Of a DNA stretch of 64,000 nucleotides, positions 43,550 to 60,038 are shown piece by piece; within the stretch, counting starts at the first letter, position 1; each line of letters opens with the position of its first letter. The translations under genes were made by a program, and so were the position numbers. Location of the stretch: contig OY253678.1 of the NCBI GenBank assembly GCA_958009085.1, positions 620,001-684,000 on the forward strand. The letters run 5' to 3'. The notes under the pieces are model-generated. The model had not been told where the DNA came from, did not search any database, and worked only from the letters and a program-made list of their open reading frames with translations. This stretch comes from Protoeuglena noctilucae. Lineage: Eukaryota.

Positions 43550-44321
43550 GGCAGGTTGCAATGCGCCTCTGCTCGCGGCTGTTGTGTTCTTTCGACCGGA
43601 CGCTAGCAACACGCTCAGCGCGATTCGTTGCAGTCGACTTGAAACAGGGTAACTCGCAGTTCCTGACGAGGGTTTCTCGAACGTCCGGCGCTCTGATCCG
43701 CTCCTCGCCACGGCTATGCGGCCTCACCGCATCTTCTACCCGTGGCACGGGAGGGGGCTCCGGGCAGCGAGTGGCGTTCGACAAATGGCGCAAACAGCCT
43801 CGTGTCCCATGTGTCCCGTCGACGCCCTGACGAAATAAAAAATTGATTCTTGTAGTGGCCCCGACTGCCCTTTCCGTCGCTGAGGGTCGGCTGGGCGGCC
43901 CACCCCTCAGGTAAGAGCCCCACGAGCCTCCCCGCCCCGCGGTGTGGCACCTGTTTGCCACGCGCACGTGGGAGCTTGGCAACTGCCGCCTCGGGACCCA
44001 GCCCGCGCCAACCACGCGCCAAAATTGCCCGCGTGCGAATGCCCGCACAGCATTTGCCCCGTCAAGGCTCCCGCCGCTCTTTCTTCGCCACAGGGACATC
44101 GGCCTACCTCCGTGGGCAGTAAGGCACTCCGGCATCTCGGAGCGGGCGTGCGGCTCGACACATGGCGGCAGCTTCCCCCGTACGGGCCCCTCGGCCATCT
44201 TTGGTGAGGCCGCTTGGCCGCTTGGCAGCACGCTCGAGCTCCGATCGCCGCGTTCTGCATATACATGTCCAGTTTCTGGCTTGTGACGATCCCAAGAGGG
44301 CGCCTGTTGTTCACGCAGGCC

Positions 44322-48482
<4,161 letters not shown>

Positions 48483-48810: not shown

Positions 48811-49630
48811 ATGCACCTGTCTAAGTCCCTCGCGTTTGCCAAAGGCGGCGTGTCCTCAGGGCTGCGCTCCAGGACGGGGTACGCCAGGGCTTCGCACGTG
48901 CAAGCCATGGCGGCCAAGCGCGCGCTCGTACCCGTCGCAAACGGATCGGAGGAGATGGAGGCTGTCATCATGATTGACGTCTTGCGCAGGTGACCCTCGA
49001 ACCTGCGCCCGCGACCCCACCGTGGGTCCGGAACCGCTGGCACGTCGTCTGCAAATGATCTCCGCCGCAGGGCCGGGACGGAGGTCACCGTGGCGTCCGT
49101 GGAGTCCACGAAGGACGTTACGTGTTCCCGCGGCGTTCGATTGGTTGCAGACCGCCTCCTTGAGGAGGTAAACCAAGAGAGCTTCGACCTCATCGCCTTA
49201 CCAGGCGGGATGCCGGGCGCCGAGCGGCTGGGGCAGAGCACGAAGCTCGTGGAGATGTTGAAAAAGCAGAGGGACGCCGGGAAGCTCTACGCAGCCATCT
49301 GTGCTACCCCAGGTGACGGTCGCAGGCATGTCGGGGACCCCATAGACAGGGAACACGACGATATGCTAAAGACCTGTGTGCGCGCGCGTGGTGCCCGCAG
49401 GCGTGGTCTTCACCCCGGCCGGCCTGCTGGAAGGGAAGAAAGCCACGGCGCACCCTGCGTTCGTGGAGCGCCTGGCGGACCAGTCACGAGCAGAGGACAG
49501 GGTGGTCGTGGATGGGACGTGCACGACGTCGCGCGGACCCGGGACGGCGTTCGAGTTTGCGCTCAGCCTCGTGGGCCAGCTGCACGGCGAGGACAAGGCC
49601 CGCGAGGTGGCCAAGCCCATGGTGCTCTGA
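48811..49630 (+). CDS. DJ-1/PfpI (YajL/ThiJ-type) glyoxalase/deglycase with an organellar presequence
   Basis: ALVPVANGSEEMEAVIMIDVLRRAG; LPGGMPGAERL; AAICATP; TTSRGPGTAFEFAL. Confidence 0.93.
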
Positions 49631-49668
49631 TGTCGTCACCCGTAAGGAACCTGGCCCCCAGGCCCTCC

Positions 49669-50279
49669 TCATCCCTCCCGCCACGTGTGCGTGCACTTAC
49701 AGCACTTGTAGAACACCGTCGCTGGCTCGTCCGCCGATCGAATCTGCACCTCCTTGAAATACGCCTCGTTGTGACCGCACTTCTCGCACGGCGCCGCCTG
49801 CGAAGTCACCGAGGAGGGCCACACTGCGTAGACAGGGTCCTCGCCGAGCGTGCTTGGGACTGAGCCCCATTCAGCTCCACCTCACCGTCGTAGGCACGCC
49901 TTTCCACGCTCCCTCTTCCTGCAAAACCTCCGCCACCTCCTTCTTCTCCAAGTGCAGCCCCGTCGCCACCCTCCTCTCCACCGCGTACTGCGGCGATGGT
50001 GTAGGGGCGCGGTGTAAGAGCGTACGACGGCGATTCGCATCGCGGGTGCGACCGCGGGCACGCAGCGTGCTCGCCTGGTACGAGCAAGACGTGCAAGCGT
50101 AGCGTACCGTCGCGTCGCTGTTGATGCTGCTGTCGGCGCCCTGCTGCTTCACTGCAATTGCGCGAGAAAGTGAGAAGGGTCAGTGAGACTATGCTGGTAG
50201 CTGGGCAGGGAACGCGCGCCGCCTGGGCCTGGGGCTCACGCAGCAGCATGTTGGCGCACGTTGGGCAGAACGCCTGCAT
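49669..50279 (-). CDS. RPC11: RNA polymerase III subunit RPC11 (POLR3K)
   Basis: FCPTCANML; ACTSCSYQ; CEKCGHNEAYFKEVQIRSADEPATVFYKCCKCTHTWRE. Confidence 0.93.
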
Positions 50280-50547: not shown

Positions 50548-52065
50548 ATGCTCTCCGCCGGGCGCGCTTGGAGCCTCATCGCCCGCATCCGCCCGCTCAG
50601 GACCCGACGGCGCACTCGTGCGTCGGCCGACGACGCTCCGGTGACGGCAGAGGTCGTCATCGCACCACCCACGCCACCCATGCCTGGCAGCGCCAAGAAG
50701 AAGGCCTCCCGCGCTCGCGTTTATGTTGCGGCGGATCACGACGCTGCCACCAGGTGCATTGCACGTTCAATCGCGGTTCTGCATGCCGCAGCAATGATGA
50801 TTGACCAGGGTCTGAGCAATATCACGTCTATGGTCTCGCAGAGCGAAGGCGTTGAAGATCGCGGAGCAGCTGCGGGCCCTTTACCCGGCGCCGCCCATCC
50901 CACTGGACCATAAGACGCCATTCCAGCTGCTCGTGGCCGTCATACTGTCGGCGCAGACGACGGACAAGAAGGTGAACGAGGTGACGCCCGCACTCTTCGC
51001 GGTGGCGCCCGATGCTCAGGCCATGGCGCGCACGGACGTCAAGGTCATCGAGGAGCACATTCGGTGGGTGGGCCTGGCGCCGACTAAGTCCCGCAACCTC
51101 TCCCGGATGTCACAATTACTCGTGGAGCAGCACGGGGGCGCCGTCCCTGGCACTTTTGAGGAGCTGGAGGCGCTGGTGAGTCCGCGGTCTCAGGGTCAGG
51201 AGCAGCATATGACACGCAGCTTTCCCTGGCACTTTTGAGGAGCTGGAGGCGCTGGTGAGTCCGCGGTCTCAGGGTCAGGAGCAGCATATGACACGCAGCT
51301 TTGCCGGAGTGCCTGGCGCCGCAAACGCTGCCCGCGCCCTGAGCCCGCAGCCCGGAGTGGGCCACAAGACGGCGAGCGTGGTCATGTCCCAGGTCTTTGG
51401 CAAGCCGGCCTTCCCCGTCGACACGCACATTCACCGACTGGCGCAGAGGTGACTGGTTACCAGGGTGCATCGGCTGCACGCTGCGTGGAGTTGACCTCCC
51501 GTGCCTTTCAAGACCTCGCTGCCCTGGGCTCCTGTCCAGGTGGGGCCTCACGAGCGGGGCCAGCGTAGAGCAGACGGAGGCGGATCTTAAAGCACTGTTC
51601 CCGGAGGATAGGTGGAACGACCTGCATCTCCAGATCATCTATTTTGGGAGGGAGCACTGCCCCGCCGCTCACGACCCCAGCGGCTGCCCCATCTGCCAAT
51701 GGGCCGCCGTCCCACCGTACCACAAGACAGGGTACAGCCCTCCCCGCCCGGGCCAGCGCGGCGTCCGGCGCAAGATCGGTACGTGCGCTGCAGATCGGCG
51801 CAGCCGAGCGCAGCCCTTGGCGTTCCAATACATTAAGACCAATTGCAGCTGGTATCGGCTTGGCTGAACCTGTGTCTGCCCTTCTGACGTCGCAGCTCGG
51901 GAGTCGAGCTCGGATGAGGAGTCGGATGGGGGCAGTGAGGACGGCGACTGGGCGCCCTCCGCTGCGGCTGGCAAGGGCAAAAAGGCCACGGGGACCGGGG
52001 AGGAGTCGGGACGGAAGACGAGGGCGAAGAGGAAGCTAAAGCGGACTAGTGAAGGGGACGAGTGA
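50548..52065 (+). CDS. nth: Endonuclease III (HhH-GPD DNA glycosylase), bacterial-like, with N-terminal presequence and basic C-terminal tail
   Basis: [60 protein letters not shown]. Confidence 0.93.
51144..51302. repeat. Perfect 79-bp tandem duplication spanning an exon 3' end and 5' splice site of nth
   Basis: tccctggcacttttgaggagctggaggcgctg|gtgagt...gacacgcagctt starts at both 51144 and 51223. Confidence 0.95.
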
Positions 52066-52214
52066 CGCATGCGCATGCAGCTAGCATGGTCGGCAGAGTT
52101 GATGGCACCAGTGAGCTAGCAGGTCTGTGGACATGTCGATTGCGACCGAGCTCTGCTATGCCATACCCGAGTCCAAGAGCAGCCCTGCGCGAGTCAAGAT
52201 TAAGCGGTGCGTCC

Positions 52215-54520
52215 CTAGGATGTCGAGTTGGACCCCTCCGCCGGCGCTGGCGTGACTTGACTTGCAATCCAGTCTCGGTACTGCGAGAGGGTCCCGCTGG
52301 CGATGGCCTGGCGCAAGTGACTGAAGAACTCGAGGTAGTGGTGCTGCGTGAAGGTGCGTGGAGGAGGGGGTCGAGCAGGGTGACAGTCGGTGCCGCGTAG
52401 GCGACTGCAGCGCTCTGCACCAGGGCGCTGGCGAGGGAAGGGTGCTCACCGTGTTGTGGATTTCCAGGAGGGTGTCCCCCAGCATCTCCCTGTTCGCCAG
52501 AAGGTGGGACACGTACGCACGGGACGCTGTCTGCGGGGCAGGCGACGGATGGCAGATGCTGTCAAGGACCGAGCCCGGACTATGAACGATCGCTGCACAA
52601 CATGGAGCCATCTGCAACCTCCATAGTTCTGTCAGCTCCTCACCCGGCACGCCAGGCACTGGCATTTGCTCGATATGGGTGCGCTGTCATCCGCAGCAAC
52701 CTTTGTCACGTCCAGCGTCCCGCCCCACACATCAGCCGAGCCATCCTGCGAACGAACAAGGCTTGGCGGCCCTCAAGTATCGAGTCGAACCATTCTCGCA
52801 GCAACAACCATAGCGGTCTTAACGCCGGCGTCAGGCATCCTATGTCGAGCCATGGGGTCGCCCGCTGCGACAGCTGCGCAGCACACTACCCATCCTGGTG
52901 CCCGGCTCTCGCCTGGCTGGACGCCCTCACGTCGTCGCGGTCCTGCCCTCCCTCGGCAACCCCTGCCTCTCGCCAAGACTCGGGCATCACGGGGTCAAAG
53001 GTAAAGGCGCGCCCTTGGCTGGTGGCGCGCGTCACGTGTGACAGGTAGAGCAGGTCCGCACCTGCCTCCACCATGCGAATGACCTCCCCCGGGTCGCCCT
53101 GCAAGCAAGGGAGGACAGCCTTCTCGTGGTGAACCAAACAGGATCAATACCAAACAACGGCCCTGGGCTGCTGTACAGGTTCCACCAACCAGGGTTGCAA
53201 AACAGCTGACTTATGTTCGTGGTGCCGCAAAGGACGGCCATCGGCCCACCGCGACCGTCCACCCACCTCGCACGACACCAACCGCAACCCTGCCTCGTCC
53301 CCGACCCCAGCCAGCACGGTCCCCACGCCCCTGTCCCGCGTCGCTCGGTCCCCCTCACTGATCACTGCAAGGGAAACACGTACTCGATGTCACTTGCGTC
53401 ACCATGGACGGCCTGGCGGCCCAAGGCTTGTTGGCCTTGCAGCTGCGCCGCACCCGAGTACCCCAACACGTGCGCCCCCAGGCTTTCCATCTCCGCCTTG
53501 CACTGCGCAGAATGAGAAGTTACACGCGCGTTAGAATAGAGAAGTCGTGACTATAAACAGCAAGCCCCAGCAAGCACATCGCTGACCTTCCGTCCGCCTT
53601 CCAGACACACGCGCTGGCTCTCGGGGTCTTCCGCGCCGCTGAGTGGCATGAGGAACGAGGTCGACACATCCTCCGCCGCCAGCGCCCGCACGCACTCGCT
53701 CGCCATCGCCAGCCCCTCCCTCGTCGCAGCCAAACGCTTGTCTGCTCGCAGCTCTGCCACAAGAGGGAGGGCCCTGGCTTTGGATGCCATGCGCCCGTCG
53801 CACGCGCAAGTCCGCAGCCTCGAGCCGGCCACAGCGCCGGAGCCTCGCCTGGGGAAACGTGCTCGTGGAGGGTGCAGAGGACATCGGGACGAAGCCAGCG
53901 CGCCACGACAGCGTAAACGCTCGCGTCCACGGGCACGGTGCCAGCCACCGTCCCCGCCGTCAGTCCCGCGGATGGCCGGCCCTGGGTATGCCGAGCGGTG
54001 CGGGGTAGCAGGTGCGGAGCCTCAGTGCCCTGCCGTCACGCCGTATGCAGGATGCAGCCCGCGGCTCACCGGGAGCCTCCGCGGCGACGACTCGGGATTG
54101 ATGATGTCGTGGGGGACGACGAATATGAGATCGCGACTGCCGCTGAGACCCAGGAAGGTGCGCCCGTCCTTGCCGACGGCATTGAGGGCCGTCAGGTCCG
54201 CGAGGCCTGGGCTGGCCAGGAAGTGCGTGGCACAGAGGGCTAGAGCACGGTGCCCGGTGGTGCCGACATCCGCAAAGAGATCTGGCGTCGTGTTGGGTAC
54301 GCAGCCCCGGATTGTGTTGACGAGCATCGTCGGCGTAAAGACCGACGCCCCTGCGAGCACGCCACGCGGGCTGTCCTCCACGCTGACCCGCGTTTGGGAC
54401 GCGCCGATTGATGCATCAGCTCCTCGAGAAGGCCGTCTCACCCCCCGACTCGAGCCTTCCGCATCGCGGCCCGCACTCCCGCCCCCGGCCAAGGATGGAC
54501 GTCACGACGAACTTGGCCAT
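52215..54520 (-). CDS. QTRT2: Queuine tRNA-ribosyltransferase accessory subunit
   Basis: TPTMLVNTIRGCVPNTTPDL; GDPGEVIRMVEAGADL; DSAPISSKCQCLACR|TASRAYVSHLLANREMLGDTLLEIHNT|HHYLEFFSHLRQAI. Confidence 0.88.
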
Positions 54521-54869
54521 GCTGCTCCCCGCCACCATCCCCACCCCGCCGTGCCGCGCGGGCTTCTGAGGGCTTCGTTGTTGCCAGCGAGGACGCTGCG
54601 GCGGCATTTGTTGATCCCCGGCACCCTGAAACGCCAGACGGGGTCACATCAAGCTGACGGCTTGCCCAAGGCACGCGTCCTGTCAAGGGAATACAAAAAC
54701 TAAAAGTCGCGTCTGATATCGCATTTGCCGCTCGCCACGCGGATCCACACCCGGTGCAGCCGAGGGCGCTCCTTGCCCCGCTCGCCGCGGGCTCCTCGGC
54801 AAAAGGCCGGGATCGGGGGTACCTCCAAACGCTGACGGCTTTGCTTGGGTCGCGCTTAGGGCCACGGCC

Positions 54870-57800
54870 ATGTCCGAGAGCGCCGCAGCGCCCACGGCTC
54901 AGGGCGACGACCCGGGCCATGGAAACCCCGGCACCAGGCCCGCCCACACCGTCGATGTGAGCCCAGATCGAGCCACCCTTCTCTTACAGTCCCTAAGAGC
55001 GCGTCTTGAGGTTCTGAGGTGATCCGGCTGCCTCCCTACGGTCGCGCCCGTCACATCGGCTCGCTGGCTTCGTCGGAGTCCATGCGCTGCCCCGCCTCCG
55101 CGGTTGCACACCGCAGGAAGGAGAGCGAGAAGCTGGGCCCGGGACCGAGCGGCATGGGCGACGCGTACCGTCTCGCGCGCATGTTCGAGGGCGCGTTCCG
55201 TGAGGCGGTCGCCTCGAAGGACACATCGCCCCACATCCTGGACGCGCTTGAGGAAAAGGGTCTCAAGGGGAGGCTTGACGCCATCAATCTCGACGCCATA
55301 TTCACGCTGGAGAACCTGCGGAGGACGTGCAAGACGGCGGAGGGCTACCAGGGGTGCTTGTCCATTCTGTTAGCTGCGGCATGAGCACAAAGTACCGCAG
55401 TAGCCATCAACCTACTCGCTGCTCGATGCGTCTGGGTCACCGCATGCTAAGGCCGCCCCAATCCCTCACGTGCCGTGCTGCTGATTGCAAGCCATCGCCA
55501 GCTGCATCTCCTCCTCCTCCCCCAGCCGCACCTCGTCTCGCCCGAGAAGGGTTTCTTCCGCATGATCGTGAGCGTCATTGAGTCGTCTCGCGGCCTCATC
55601 AACAGCGCCGTGTCAGACGTGAACGGCATCCTCAAGCAGGCGGTGGCGCAGGCACAGAAGCTCTTTGAAAATCCCAACTACGTCGGCGCAGACGGCACCA
55701 CCCTCACGAGCCTCCCCTCCATGCGCAGCGCCGTGGGAGCCTAAGGTGCGTGCCCCGCAGCCGTCAGCACGGGCCGCGGTCGGGCCGGCGACCATGCGCG
55801 ACGCCTGGGGTCCTCCTGCCTCGCTCGCAGCGCTCGAGACGCTGGACAAGTGGGCGAAGGAGGCCGTGGTGGTCGTCAACAGTTTGGTCGACATGGAAAA
55901 GACGTTCGTGACAGCGGATTTCTTCCGACTCATCCAGGGACGCCGGGTGCAAGCCGCTGCACGCCAGGGCGCCCACCAATCGGTGAGCCGCCTTGCCTGG
56001 GCTTCGATACTCGCTACGAGTGCCGATCGGCATGCCGGGGAACGACAGGGCAGCTCGCACGGTCTAAGCATTGCATTGCATGCGCTGGCGGCTACACCTT
56101 TCCAGGCCAATCAACGCCGCCACGAGTGCCGGGGGCTTAGTCAGGCAAGCACCGTCGCCTCTCGACGCAGGCTGGCGGGCCGCCGGGCCGGGGGCGCGGC
56201 CCCGTGACTCCCCGGGCAGGCCAGCAGGACCGCCTGCCCTGCCCCTCCATGACGGGTCACGAGAGCGACGACTCGTCTGCAGGGGAGAGCACGACGCCGA
56301 CCATCGCCCAGCGCCTGTCCCCCCGGTGAGCTGCAGGCTTACGCTTGTATATACTCGTCCTTGCGAGAGATTGGGCTCGGACATTGCACGCCTGGCATGA
56401 TTTGGGGGGCAAGCAGATGCGTTCCCTTGGATTGCCACCATGTCATGAGCTTATTCGTGAGTACCATGGACAACGGTGCTCATTGCCAGGTTCATTTCGA
56501 CAATCCACCTCGGCATGCCTTGCATCAACGCAGCGCGGCCGTGCCGGAGCTCATGAGGCTGAAGGAGGACGTGGATCGCAACAGCGGCACCAACTTCATG
56601 GTGGGGTTCCTGGACAAGAAGGCGAAGCCCGAAAGGGGCGAGGCTTACCACTGGCAGAGGAGGTGAGCGCGTGCGGCACGCGACGGGGTCTGTGTGCCTC
56701 TGGACAGCGCATGCGGTGCTACACGCCCCCACTCGCCCACTGCATCGCTCACGTACAGGTGGTTCGTGTGCTCCACGGAGAGCCGGATGCTCTACTACAT
56801 GCCCAGCCCGTCGTCGCTGCCCAAGCCCCGCGTATCCATCGTCCTGACAGACGTCATTGTCGAGGACGTCACCGTCAACATGATCCACGTAAGTTTATAT
56901 GTCCGGCATCAACATAAGTAGGAGAAACTCCCCACTACCGCAGGGCCACCCGCCAACCACCCACGGGGCTGGGATGCGCCAGCAGCAGCTGCATCTTCAC
57001 TCTGAACGCATGCTTGGCCGTGCGCCGTCCCTGCAGGAGCTGGCCGAGTCCCTCCAGAAGGGCATGACGGACGCGGCAGGGCAGTCCTTGGTCTTCCGCC
57101 TCCGCTCCATCGAACAAAACCGGCCGGTGGTGAAGGGTCACACCCAGCTCATCCTCCGTGCGTCGACCTTGGTCGAGAAAGAGAATTGGCTGACGCGGTG
57201 AGTGAGCTTTAGCAAGCCTGGTCGGGGAGACTCGGTTGCCGCCACGTGCCGTGGCGTAGCGACCCTCCTGCTCGAGCCCCATCGCGCTCCACACGCTGGA
57301 GCTGAGCGTTGCTGACGTTGGCTTGCGGTCTCGTCCCTGCCTGCCCAGGCTGAGGCAGGTGCAGACGATGGACGCCGTGCGGTCCCTGGCACGAGAGAGC
57401 TCCGTCCCGAGGTGATGATGAGGCAATCATGCAGATCGACTTGATCACCTTTCCAAGCACTTAATCGTGAACGTCATGCACAGTCAGGGCTGCATCTCTC
57501 GCACAGAAACTGGACATCTTTCTTAGACTCTGCGATCGGTTGACGGGGTTAAGAATTCCGTGGGATTAGTGGGGAACGTGCTCTGGCGTTGCGGCCTTCG
57601 CAGGCGCGGCGACCGGCCACCATCCCCGCCCCGCATCAACGACCTGAAGATTCGCGGCTTTGGAGGACTGCACCTCGAGGGACGGACGCGGACGGGGCAG
57701 ATCGCCGGGGTCGGGGCCATGAACGGGTCCACTCACCCCCGTGAGAATGCCTGAAGACACTGCATGCAGACACGGGCGCCCATGCATCGACCCGAGCAGC

Positions 57801-59100
57801 ACAACGCATTTGTTACAATCATCACTTGTTGTGTGCGCTCCCTCGACCCCGTGGCCACCCTGCTGACCCACGCGGTGACTCGCGAAACCTCTTCACGCCT
57901 TCTCCGTCGCAGGGCGCGTCGCCAGCGAGGGCTCGCTGGACCAGCTTCAGGGACAACTCCCTCACATCAAAAAAGAGACGGAGAAGCCGCCCTTCCCCAG
58001 CAACCCCGCCCTCCCCCCGCACCTGGGAGGTGAGTGCCGCAACTCCCTGCACCAGGCCACCCCGCGCTGTGCCTTCCGGTGATGGGACCACTCTGCGTCA
58101 TCCACGCCCACGCTCGGCCCTCGCACCGCGTTGCAGGGAACGGCTGGCGCGGGGGTTTCGGGCCCGACAACACCTCCTTCCTGAGCCAAATGGCGGCGGA
58201 CGGGCGTGCCTATTGCCGGGTGGTGCTGGACACCCTGGCAAGCAGCGTCTCCAAAGCAGTCATCCACATCATGGTCATGAAGGCGGAGGGCCACCTGCAG
58301 GACTCGCTGTACGGCCGCATCGCGGAGCTGGCGCCAGAAGAGCAGAAGCGCCTGACTCAGGAGGACCCCAGCGTCGTGCAGAGGCGCGCGGCGTTGGCAC
58401 TCGCGGTGGACGACGTGGTCGGGGCGATCAGGTGAAGTAGCCGGGCTGCGTTTGGTTGGCTGCAGCCTGGCAGGGGGCGCTAGGGGGCAAGGAGCATACC
58501 CACCCTGGATGGGGGTCTGGCGCAACTCGAATTCCGTCATGAGGCAGTGGTAGCCGGGACGGATTCCCCGTTCCTGGCGAAAGTGGCAGCTGTCTGGAGA
58601 AGTGCCGAGTGTCGGGGCTTGCACCCCACGCAGGCTGTTGCGGACGGCGGAGGACGAGTACAGCAAGCAGCCGCGGGAGGTCCGGGGCGCCACCATCCAC
58701 GTCCCACGCGCCGCCGAGATCGCCGGGCAAGGGCCCGACCTTATCAACCGCCTGCGGCCCCACGGCGTGCAGCTGGCCAGGCTGCCAGAGCCTGAGGACT
58801 TCGCGGAGCGAGCCCCGGACCAGCCCCGGCCCGCAGCCCACCCGCAGGCGCACCACCGCAGGGAAGACGGATCAAGTGAGTGATAGACTGCATGATGTAA
58901 CATGGTGGCTTCCATTGAGCCCGCACAGCCATGCAGCTCCTATGGCCCAGCCTGCAAGGCCCGCATTTGGGCGGGCGTGCTGTCGTACCTGCTAACTGCT
59001 GCTAGCAATCGCTAACCAAATCACATGAATATGTCTACGCTGCGACGCAGGCGTGTCCGTGCGCCCCCGGCGTCCGGCCCCGACCCCTGTGCCGCACTGA
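54870..59100 (+). CDS. DRP2-type dynamin-related protein (stalk-PH-GED-PRD) lacking the GTPase domain; contains an in-frame TAA, so possibly a pseudogene or sequence error
   Basis: AEGYQ|PHLVSPEKG; LVDMEKTFV; PH domain GFLDKK...WQRR|WFV...EKENWLTRL; SEGSLD; GED AYCRVVLDTLASSVSKAV...EDPSVVQRR; terminal RPRRPAPTP. Confidence 0.8.
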
Positions 59101-59103
59101 AAC

Positions 59104-60038
59104 TCAAGAGTCCCCGTCCTCGACCACAACAGCCCCGAAAGCCGCGTCTGGCGGCCGCTGCCTGGCCTCCTGGACGCGCTGCTCGTGCTGCGAGGTGCTA
59201 GAGAGCATCACGGAGCCCCCCAACACGACACGGACCCACTTGTCTGCGGCGGCGATGAGACAGGGCGGTGTTTTAAAGCGCGCTGCTTTCGAGCTAGCGT
59301 GTTGGCAGTCGCTGCAAGCCCGCCTTGCCTTTAAGACGCTGTGCCACGTCCCGAACGGTCGACGACGCATCGCTCTTGGCCATCCGAGCCACGACCTTGC
59401 CTGGCGAGGGGCAGACAGCTGAGATGCCTGGGTGAGGGCTTGTGTAAACACTGCGTTCGGCACTGCGCTGCGCACCCAGGCTCTCACCAATGCTCGTGTG
59501 CCTGAGCCGGTCGAGCGTCACGGACATCGAGTCCAGCGTGCGCAGCGTGCGCAGCTTGTCCGCCTCACTGCAAACACCGAGGTGCGAGGACGCAGCTGAT
59601 ACCATCAATATGCTGCAGCGTCGTAAGCCGCAGGGAGCCACAGCAGGCCTCACCTCTTCGCATCGGCCAACTCTCCCATCAGCTTCGACAGGTCCGCATT
59701 TGCAAAGGCGAAGGCACTGTGGTTCAGCTTGACAACGCCCTTGAGCCGGTCGAGCGTCAGCTGGGTGCAGAAGGCGATGCGGGAGACGCCGTCGCAGCTA
59801 GCCAACAACGCTAGTCGTCTGCACTCGCGACGACGAGCCCTGCACCTGCTTGCGCACGCCTGCGGGTCTCGAGCTTGACGAACAGCTCCTCCCCGCGAGC
59901 TCTTGCTGCCGGGTGAACGCGCTCGTGATGGACGCCTGTCTCTGCGCGCGATGCGAGCCCATCGGCCCTGTCGCGCCACGGGCGGCCTATCGGGTCAGTC
60001 AGAACCCGACTCCCACCGTTGATGATGCGAGCTTGCAT
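59104..60038 (-). CDS. Protein with a TFIIS N-terminal (LW/Med26-like) domain
   Basis: LRTLRTLDSMSVTLDRLRHTSIG|KVVARMAK...VRDVAQRLK|DKWVRVV; start uncertain. Confidence 0.7.

Follow-up and report, generated by a model that had tools for sequence, protein, structure and literature searches.

Dynamins and dynamin-related proteins (DRPs) form a superfamily that is defined by a large GTPase domain. Among its land-plant members, the Arabidopsis proteins DRP2A and DRP2B carry a PH domain as well as a proline-rich domain (PRD) and act together with DRP1 in clathrin-mediated endocytosis (PMC11789081, PMC5717801). The GTPase domain of DRP2, which is described as divergent (PMC11789081), is followed by a stalk, a PH domain, a GED and a proline-rich tail (PMC11789081, PMC5717801). 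Here we describe a gene with this same order of parts but without the GTPase domain, located on the + strand at 54870-59100 of a 64-kb stretch of DNA from the alga Protoeuglena noctilucae (assembly GCA_958009085.1, contig OY253678.1, positions 620,001 to 684,000; hereafter the window). It is a real and expressed gene, and it belongs to a conserved family of chlorophytes whose proteins lack a GTPase domain and correspond to dynamin residues ~291 to the end.

Animal dynamins 1-3 share the stalk-PH-GED-PRD order with this family and provide its best structural matches (dynamin-1 residues 291-748 and a dynamin-3 tetramer, with VIA-align Z scores of 18-19.6), whereas their residues 1-290, which comprise the first bundle signalling element (BSE) helix and the G domain, have no counterpart, and sequence identity is 13-19%. 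The short forms of plant DRP4A are likewise naturally truncated dynamin-superfamily genes of the green lineage, but their truncation is the opposite one, in that the stalk is the part missing from DRP4A, whose GTPase domain is retained (PMC11789081). Chlorophyte proteins annotated as 'DRP2' or 'dynamin-related GTPase', such as Cre02.g079550 of Chlamydomonas (XP_001701673.1), the Volvox protein XP_002954904.1 and 'Dynamin-2B' of Coccomyxa sp. Obi, belong to the same family as the window protein. They are collinear with it from the first helix to the terminal motif and show a partial Dynamin_M, PH and GED without Dynamin_N, whereas the window protein has a longer leader and a shorter stalk loop before a conserved tryptophan.

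These chlorophyte proteins have entered the literature under other descriptions. Chlamydomonas DRP2 (Cre02.g079550) is listed, next to DRP1, as induced by singlet oxygen (PMC4067076), and it appears as an 868-residue PH-domain 'Dynamin GTPase' in PMC12430284, whose PH-domain tree places the Chlamydomonas and Volvox proteins in a cluster apart from those of Arabidopsis. A survey of the superfamily gives DRP2 as 'absent in green algae', states that C. reinhardtii 'encodes only DRP1', and proposes that the GTPase domain of DRP2 was acquired by recombination (PMC11789081). Its trees were built from GTPase domains, with incomplete sequences removed, so a chlorophyte family lacking this domain would be invisible to it. 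Open-access papers that name chlorophyte DRP2 proteins call them GTPases and, in the text available, leave the missing domain unremarked. We found no description of a GTPase-less dynamin family in green algae in the open-access literature, a search whose scope did not extend to the supplementary figures of PMC11789081 or to bioRxiv supplements. If DRP2 has a relative without a GTPase domain, the chlorophyte family is the obvious candidate.

Gene model and order of domains

The region is intron-rich and has a GC fraction of 0.62-0.69. We modelled the dynamin-like gene as 14 exons with a coding sequence of 2214 nucleotides (nt), which encodes 737 amino acids (aa). The start codon at 54870 is the first in-frame ATG downstream of an in-frame stop at 54714-54716, the stop codon occupies 59098-59100, and 12 of the 13 introns have GT..AG borders. 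Exon 1 (54870-55018) opens with Met and a short leader rich in Ala, Gly and Pro, continues with the conserved motif VDVSPDRATL, and then begins the helix LLLQSLRARLEVL(R), which is the equivalent of the dynamin helix that follows the G domain. When the model is aligned with 10 relatives, its residues 27-34 correspond to their residues 8-15, and both the V-x-V-[SP] motif and the helix are kept. An earlier sequence-only reading of this stretch had described the first ~37 residues as low-complexity. That description does not hold throughout, since residues ~27-36 (VDVSPDRATL) match the motif common to relatives.

The first stalk helices are encoded by exon 2 (55117-55351), which ends with the family-invariant ..AEGYQ, and exon 3 (55526-55732) continues with PHLVSPEKG.. 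and then a stalk helix. The solved dynamin 6fgz_A can be aligned to the family profile from its residue 326 (profile position 11) onward, and this alignment includes the GED helix as well as the assembly loop (AdGfqphLvsPE versus ATGHRSPLFVPE), in which the PHLVSPE motif of exon 3 is paired with the A-T-G-x-R..LF.PE loop of the solved protein. Exon 4 (55839-55982) encodes a stalk helix with VDMEKTFVTADFFR, a block in which W, V, E, T, A, F, F and R are invariant in the family alignment. Exon 5 (56171-56325) encodes a low-complexity acidic/Ser linker from the stalk to the PH domain, at the position of the variable linker of relatives.

The PH domain is encoded by exons 6-9 (56534-56662, 56759-56888, 57037-57197 and 57349-57411), which read GFLDKK..HWQRRWFV..LYYM..VKGH..LRAS..ENWLTRL and are collinear with the PF00169 region of relatives. 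A linker between the PH domain and the GED, containing SEGSLD, follows in exons 10-11 (57604-57740 and 57913-58029). Exon 12 (58137-58431) encodes the GED, or last stalk helix (..SVSKAVIHIMVMKAEGHLQDSLY..). This exon alone matches PF02212 (GED; E 2.1e-9; 37.9 bits, cut-off 21.4), and it has an identical 81-aa counterpart (P0001) among database proteins. Exon 13 (58634-58875) completes the GED helix, carries the conserved I-H-V-P..EIAG motif and begins the Pro-rich tail; in the predicted model of a relative, the motif forms a strand and a short helix. Exon 14 (59051-59100) supplies the C-terminal RPRRPAPTPVPH and the stop codon. Support for this last exon consists of the terminal R-R-R-P-P-P-x-P-P motif of the family, which is conserved at 90% or more across 42 members.

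The spliced model matches its nearest relative, P0002, from end to end (phmmer E 2.5e-90). Its residues 27-443 match residues 8-437 of P0003, its residues 34-442 match residues 15-444 of the Volvox protein (phmmer E 6e-49), and the match to the C. reinhardtii protein has a phmmer domain E of 9.7e-39; the Pfam domains of relatives are Dynamin_M, PH and GED. The model also matches P0027, a fragment of a conventional dynamin, where the match starts at residue 145 of the fragment and thus well within its Dynamin_M region. We define the family by an initial Met that lies a few residues ahead of the post-G-domain helix, together with the motifs V-x-V-[SP], ADG[FY]QPHLVSPE, VDME..[IV]TA.FFR, W.WQ.R.F, VPKA.VH and terminal RRRPPPxPP, and the window model, aligned with 10 members, carries all of them. 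The exon model, the collinear relatives and the GED match thus uphold the earlier view of a DRP2-like dynamin with a stalk, PH domain, GED and PRD that begins at the post-G-domain helix. Each of the parts that mark a classical dynamin or DRP2 downstream of the G domain is present (stalk, Dynamin_M; PH; GED; C-terminal Pro-rich domain), and the large GTPase domain that marks the superfamily (Dynamin_N, PF00350, with a P-loop G1 and a DxPG G3) was not found.

Predicted structure points to the same arrangement. An AlphaFold model of the Chloropicon member (alignment of 42) has a mean predicted local distance difference test (pLDDT) score of 75.5, and 348 of its residues score at least 90. Foldseek matches it best to a dynamin-3 tetramer and to polymers of dynamin-1, at E 9e-12 to 3e-8. 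With VIA-align, residues 26-590 of the model pair with Drp1 295-710 (Z 19.9, root-mean-square deviation (rmsd) 5.5, 300 residues aligned), residues 32-582 with dynamin-1 293-743 (Z 19.6, rmsd 23.8, 374 aligned) and residues 30-587 with dynamin-1 polymer 291-748 (Z 18.0, rmsd 17.4, 390 aligned), the large rmsd values arising because domain orientations differ. The model superposes on the stalks of Drp1, dynamin and MxA at Z 16-20, and PH-domain structures superpose on its residues 282-412 at Z 13-15 (rmsd 1.9-3.6).

Two short elements stand out in the AlphaFold model (P0038), where an N-terminal V-x-V-[SP] (24-28) and a C-terminal V-x-V-P..LALAG (597-608) are predicted to include short strands (24-28 and 597-601). 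Their counterparts in the window lie at 54945-54975 and in exon 13. Judging from the model, both motifs appear to be specific to the family, without a counterpart in the aligned range of dynamin.

Absence of the GTPase domain in the window and across green algae

No Walker A match was found on the + strand of the whole window, no dynamin G1 or G3 pattern occurs in any of its six frames, and Dynamin_N was matched by none of the 120 + strand open reading frames (ORFs) of at least 50 aa between 35.9 and 55.0 kb. The patterns used for Walker A, G1 and G3 (DxPG) are those that we take to be typical of these motifs. The sequence-only reading had seen no P-loop or G-domain exons upstream on this strand, and the Walker A and ORF results confirm it.

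The same truncation is found in related algae. An exhaustive search with the GED exon yielded 33 proteins at E<=1e-3, superseding a word-index search for longer proteins in which 625 candidates were scored and none was significant. Pfam analysis of 14 of the 33 proteins identified 10 with PH and GED, none of which matched Dynamin_N; six of these 10 also matched Dynamin_M, entering the profile at positions 76-140 within their first 44 residues. The scan is able to detect Dynamin_N, since it matched the end of that domain in the conventional fragment P0027. PF00350 was also absent from all 37 proteins retrieved with a ten-member profile (E<=1e-10) and from all 30 retrieved with the Volvox protein (E<=1e-5), in which Dynamin_M, PH and GED occur either together or in part. 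When ten members were re-scanned at E<=0.1, every one gave Dynamin_M (from profile position 78-137), PH and GED only. These ten include C. reinhardtii XP_001701673.1, C. incerta, C. schloesseri, Raphidocelis, Coccomyxa sp. Obi, Trebouxia and a Chloropicon transcript. Named members occur in Chlorophyceae, Trebouxiophyceae and Chloropicophyceae, and Volvox carteri XP_002954904.1 is also among them. The top cluster in a protein atlas, a chlorophyte one of 112 members, is listed with PH, GED and Dynamin_M; the atlas names no more than three families for each cluster, so this entry is silent on Dynamin_N.

The N-termini of relatives fall near the same point, their Met preceding this helix by 2-32 residues, and the transcriptome ORFs of two relatives carry the assembler label 'complete'. 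Among 61 related metagenome loci, taken with flanks of up to 6 kb each, none has a dynamin G1 or G3 motif and none combines Walker A with DxPG on the strand of the gene; the sole + strand Walker A type in this set (L015, L016) belongs to a different gene upstream. Several lineages of the family are intronless. Two such loci, L011 and L018, each consist of one ORF (708 and 678 aa, respectively) that opens with M-L-D-R-L-R.. at the helix and encodes Dynamin_M, PH and GED, and the in-frame stretches upstream of both match no family. A third locus, L001, has an in-frame stop 54 nt before its Met. The earlier suggestion that the window gene might be one half of a split gene therefore finds no support, given that no related locus carries Walker A with DxPG and that intronless relatives are complete from Met. 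A split gene, like a decaying copy, is unlikely.

A quick maximum-likelihood tree of 34 rows, with support from the Shimodaira-Hasegawa-like approximate likelihood ratio test (SH-aLRT) only, places the 31 family rows in one clade against three ordinary DRP fragments (SH-aLRT 100). Within it are a clade of 17 Chlorophyceae rows (100) and a Trebouxiophyceae-containing clade of 11 rows (93). The window protein groups with P0002 (100), with which it shares 39% identity over 579 columns, and this deep branch of two groups with Chloropicon (85); the long Chloropicon branch and the unusual composition of P0002 and P0021 call for caution in reading the tree. To judge from the sequences, the pattern fits vertical descent from early in Chlorophyta. 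Between relatives, the ratio of nonsynonymous to synonymous substitution rates (dN/dS) is 0.157 for L011 and L018 (656 codons, dS 0.52) and 0.064 for L001 and L008 (232 codons, dS 1.1); pairs at greater distance show saturation.

These values bear on the idea that the window gene is a duplicate without function, derived from a full-length dynamin gene by 5' truncation and now decaying. The truncation itself and an odd donor at intron 2 (see below) would suit such a copy, and nothing else was found that does. Decay would not be expected to leave a frame open through 14 exons, spliced transcripts, the same truncated form in three chlorophyte classes with named members, a tree in which the Chlorophyceae clade stands apart from the one containing Trebouxiophyceae, and dN/dS of 0.06-0.16 in relatives. 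A decaying duplicate is, for practical purposes, excluded. Absent expression and neutral evolution, which the sequence-only reading had named as signs of such a copy, are contradicted by RNA contigs that cover and splice the 3' half of the gene and by the dN/dS of 0.157 in relatives.

Expression, neighbouring genes and the 5' end

Parts of the stretch are present in four marine metatranscriptome runs from one study (X1-X4), and contigs from three of these (X1-X3) are at least 99% alike to the window. The alga, or a near-identical strain, is therefore present and transcriptionally active in sea water. In X2 RNA contigs identical to the window, the introns at 57741-57912, 58030-58136 and 58432-58633 are spliced as modelled. 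Contigs of X1 are unspliced across introns 2, 3, 7, 10, 12 and 13 (at intron 13, the contig covering 58624-59189) and may represent DNA or pre-mRNA, for which reason they were left out as evidence of splicing.

A convergent neighbour on the minus strand (58931-59600) has much deeper contig cover, with a depth of 48 in X2. Its spliced contig extends down to 58931, past the last coding exon of the dynamin-like gene (59051-59100). This may reflect an overlap of both genes at their 3' ends, or else a fusion of two transcripts during assembly.

Four unrelated genes occupy the 19 kb upstream of the dynamin-like gene. On the + strand lie a PI4-kinase gene (44287-47971; PIK accessory domain, E 1e-6; PI3_PI4_kinase, E 3.4e-20), a DJ-1/PfpI gene (48994-49860; E 4e-22) and an HhH-GPD base-excision repair gene (50816-51449; E 9e-13). 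The PI4-kinase gene stands 7-10 kb from a gene that encodes a PH domain, and the proximity of a phosphoinositide 4-kinase to the dynamin-like gene is probably a coincidence.

Immediately upstream, on the minus strand, is a gene of the TGT family (queuine tRNA-ribosyltransferase; 52159-54520). A first Pfam scan of the minus-strand ORFs adjoining the dynamin-like gene gave nothing at E<=0.01, and a wider scan then recovered four collinear PF01702 pieces at 52159-53143. Five spliced joints of this gene, GT/GC..AG on the minus strand, are seen in X2 and X3 RNA contigs, and the spliced contigs extend to 54344. Its candidate ATG at 54520 lies 350 nt from 54870, as the sequence-only reading had placed the ATG of a divergent QTRT2 gene; the distance holds, and the identity of the gene can be given to the level of the TGT family only. 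This gene blocks immediately adjacent upstream exons for the dynamin-like gene. The divergent intergenic region between the two (54521-54869), in which no ORF matches a family, is presumed to be a two-way promoter.

Several points weigh against reading the gene as a complete member of a GTPase-less family with the role proposed below. RNA contigs (X1-X3) are lacking on 54547-55209, so the 5' end is unseen, although contigs of this kind cannot prove absence. The search for a GTPase half was confined to the window and the related loci. When the exons were scanned with Pfam one by one, 10 of 11 translations had no significant match, single PH exons being too short to match alone, which leaves collinearity with relatives as the basis for assigning stalk and PH domain in the window. 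Intron 2 (55352-55525) needs a non-canonical GG donor to give the junction GYQ|PHLVSPE, which is invariant in the family, intron 3 (55733-55838) has uncertain borders, and the donor sites of both introns are without RNA contig coverage. Stalk assembly, lipid binding, partners and cellular process are inferred. In addition, a published cartoon and author reply present Cre02.g079550 with all five dynamin domains, including the GTPase (PMC10092651). This drawing disagrees with our Pfam analysis of the 813-aa NCBI model XP_001701673.1, which found Dynamin_M, PH and GED only, a result that is also at odds with the listing of DRP2 as absent from green algae; the 868-aa version of the protein adds 55 residues, which cannot hold a GTPase domain.

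Among these points, the unseen 5' end, the confined search and the published drawing would favour the view that a GTPase domain was missed, its exons lying far upstream, on another contig, joined by trans-splicing or lost through misassembly, such that the real protein is a full DRP2. A further feature that could be read in this way is cttctcttacag at 54988-54999, which reads L-L-L-Q yet resembles a 3' splice site. However, the sequence before this putative acceptor holds the conserved N-terminal motif of the family (VDVSPDRATL versus VTVSPKDLQD in P0003), which indicates that cttctcttacag is coding and not an acceptor. The same view must also contend with the lack of any Walker A on the + strand of the window, with the 120 upstream ORFs that lack Dynamin_N, with the intervening PI4-kinase, DJ-1, HhH-GPD and TGT genes, and with the missing domain in all 37 and 30 relatives, some with intronless complete ORFs and 'complete' transcriptome ORFs. 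Finally, run X5 has a contig of 23.5 kb that extends across 53000-59600 and agrees with the window at every position there, so there is no sign of the misjoin at 54600-54900 that the sequence-only reading had raised as a concern, with the reservation that X5 may be the window's own source and is thus not independent. Taken with this evidence, a missed GTPase domain is very improbable.

The splice sites of introns 2 and 3 were also modelled in other ways. For intron 2, the sole GT..AG alternative (donor 55354, acceptor 55492) was rejected, since it gives a 12-residue insert that is present in none of 10 relatives. For intron 3, the borders as modelled leave the stalk loop before W 6-7 residues shorter than that of relatives, and a 28-nt mini-intron alternative was rejected because its 26-residue insert occurs in no relative. 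On the minus strand, the introns at 53753-53849 and 59243-59329 are GC..AG (CT..GC on the + strand) and account for two of eight minus-strand RNA joints; GC donors seem fairly common in this alga. No tandem repeats were found in 52-60 kb.

Proposed role and relation to DRP2

The best explanation, and in our view the probable one, is that the gene is a conserved family member acting as a non-catalytic dynamin subunit that assembles through its stalk and targets membranes and partners. In such a protein, the stalk would dimerise and oligomerise, and its assembly loop (ADG[FY]QPHLVSPE) is nearly invariant. The PH domain, which starts with a basic K..K/R..W-Q-[KR]-R pattern, would bring the protein to membranes with acidic phosphoinositides, and the terminal RRRPPPPPP motif would bring it to proline-binding partners. 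Since the protein has no G domain, it cannot by itself hydrolyse GTP, and it would therefore co-polymerise with a GTPase-bearing DRP that lacks a PH domain, such as DRP1, adding membrane and partner targeting to the polymer. Alternatively, it would modulate or cap polymers of such a DRP.

A different role would be that of a stand-alone regulator or scaffold, which might bind membranes and proline-recognising partners alone, or might cap or poison DRP polymers as a natural brake, without being a stoichiometric targeting subunit. An experimental dynamin without its N-terminal GTP-binding region inhibits endocytosis dominantly. The architecture expected of a regulator is the same as that of a targeting subunit, such that nothing here separates the two roles, and the N- and C-terminal motifs predicted as strands in the model of a relative would be family-specific additions. 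The near-invariant stalk assembly loop and the GED helix, however, fit assembly competence as well as they fit capping. We regard a stand-alone regulator as possible, if clearly less probable than a targeting subunit.

The targeting subunit might also be viewed as one component of a 'two-gene dynamin', in which a motor-less DRP2-like protein carrying the PH domain and PRD co-polymerises via its stalk with a motor-bearing DRP1. The motor-less form would be the ancestral state of the DRP2 lineage, and the DRP2 of land plants would be a later fusion of such a gene with a foreign, divergent GTPase domain. Such a history would explain both the conflict between DRP2 trees based on the GTPase domain and those based on the stalk and GED, and the 'absence' of DRP2 in GTPase-based surveys (PMC11789081). 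We offer this scheme tentatively and consider it rather doubtful at present.

The gene is a new member of a family that is annotated but mis-described, and this family represents a variation on the dynamin architecture in which the GTPase domain is missing. Its genes are labelled as dynamin GTPases, and the Chlamydomonas representative has been drawn with five domains (PMC10092651). The finding also bears on the distribution of DRP2, which the GTPase-based survey lists as absent from green algae, and on its origin, because a GTPase-less relative in the sister lineage makes the recombination proposal directly testable (PMC11789081). Given that the GTPase domain defines the superfamily, a conserved family under purifying selection that lacks this domain across three chlorophyte classes constitutes a natural 'pseudo-dynamin'. 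With the mutant collections of Chlamydomonas, it provides a tractable case of a dynamin stalk-PH-PRD module that exists without its motor.

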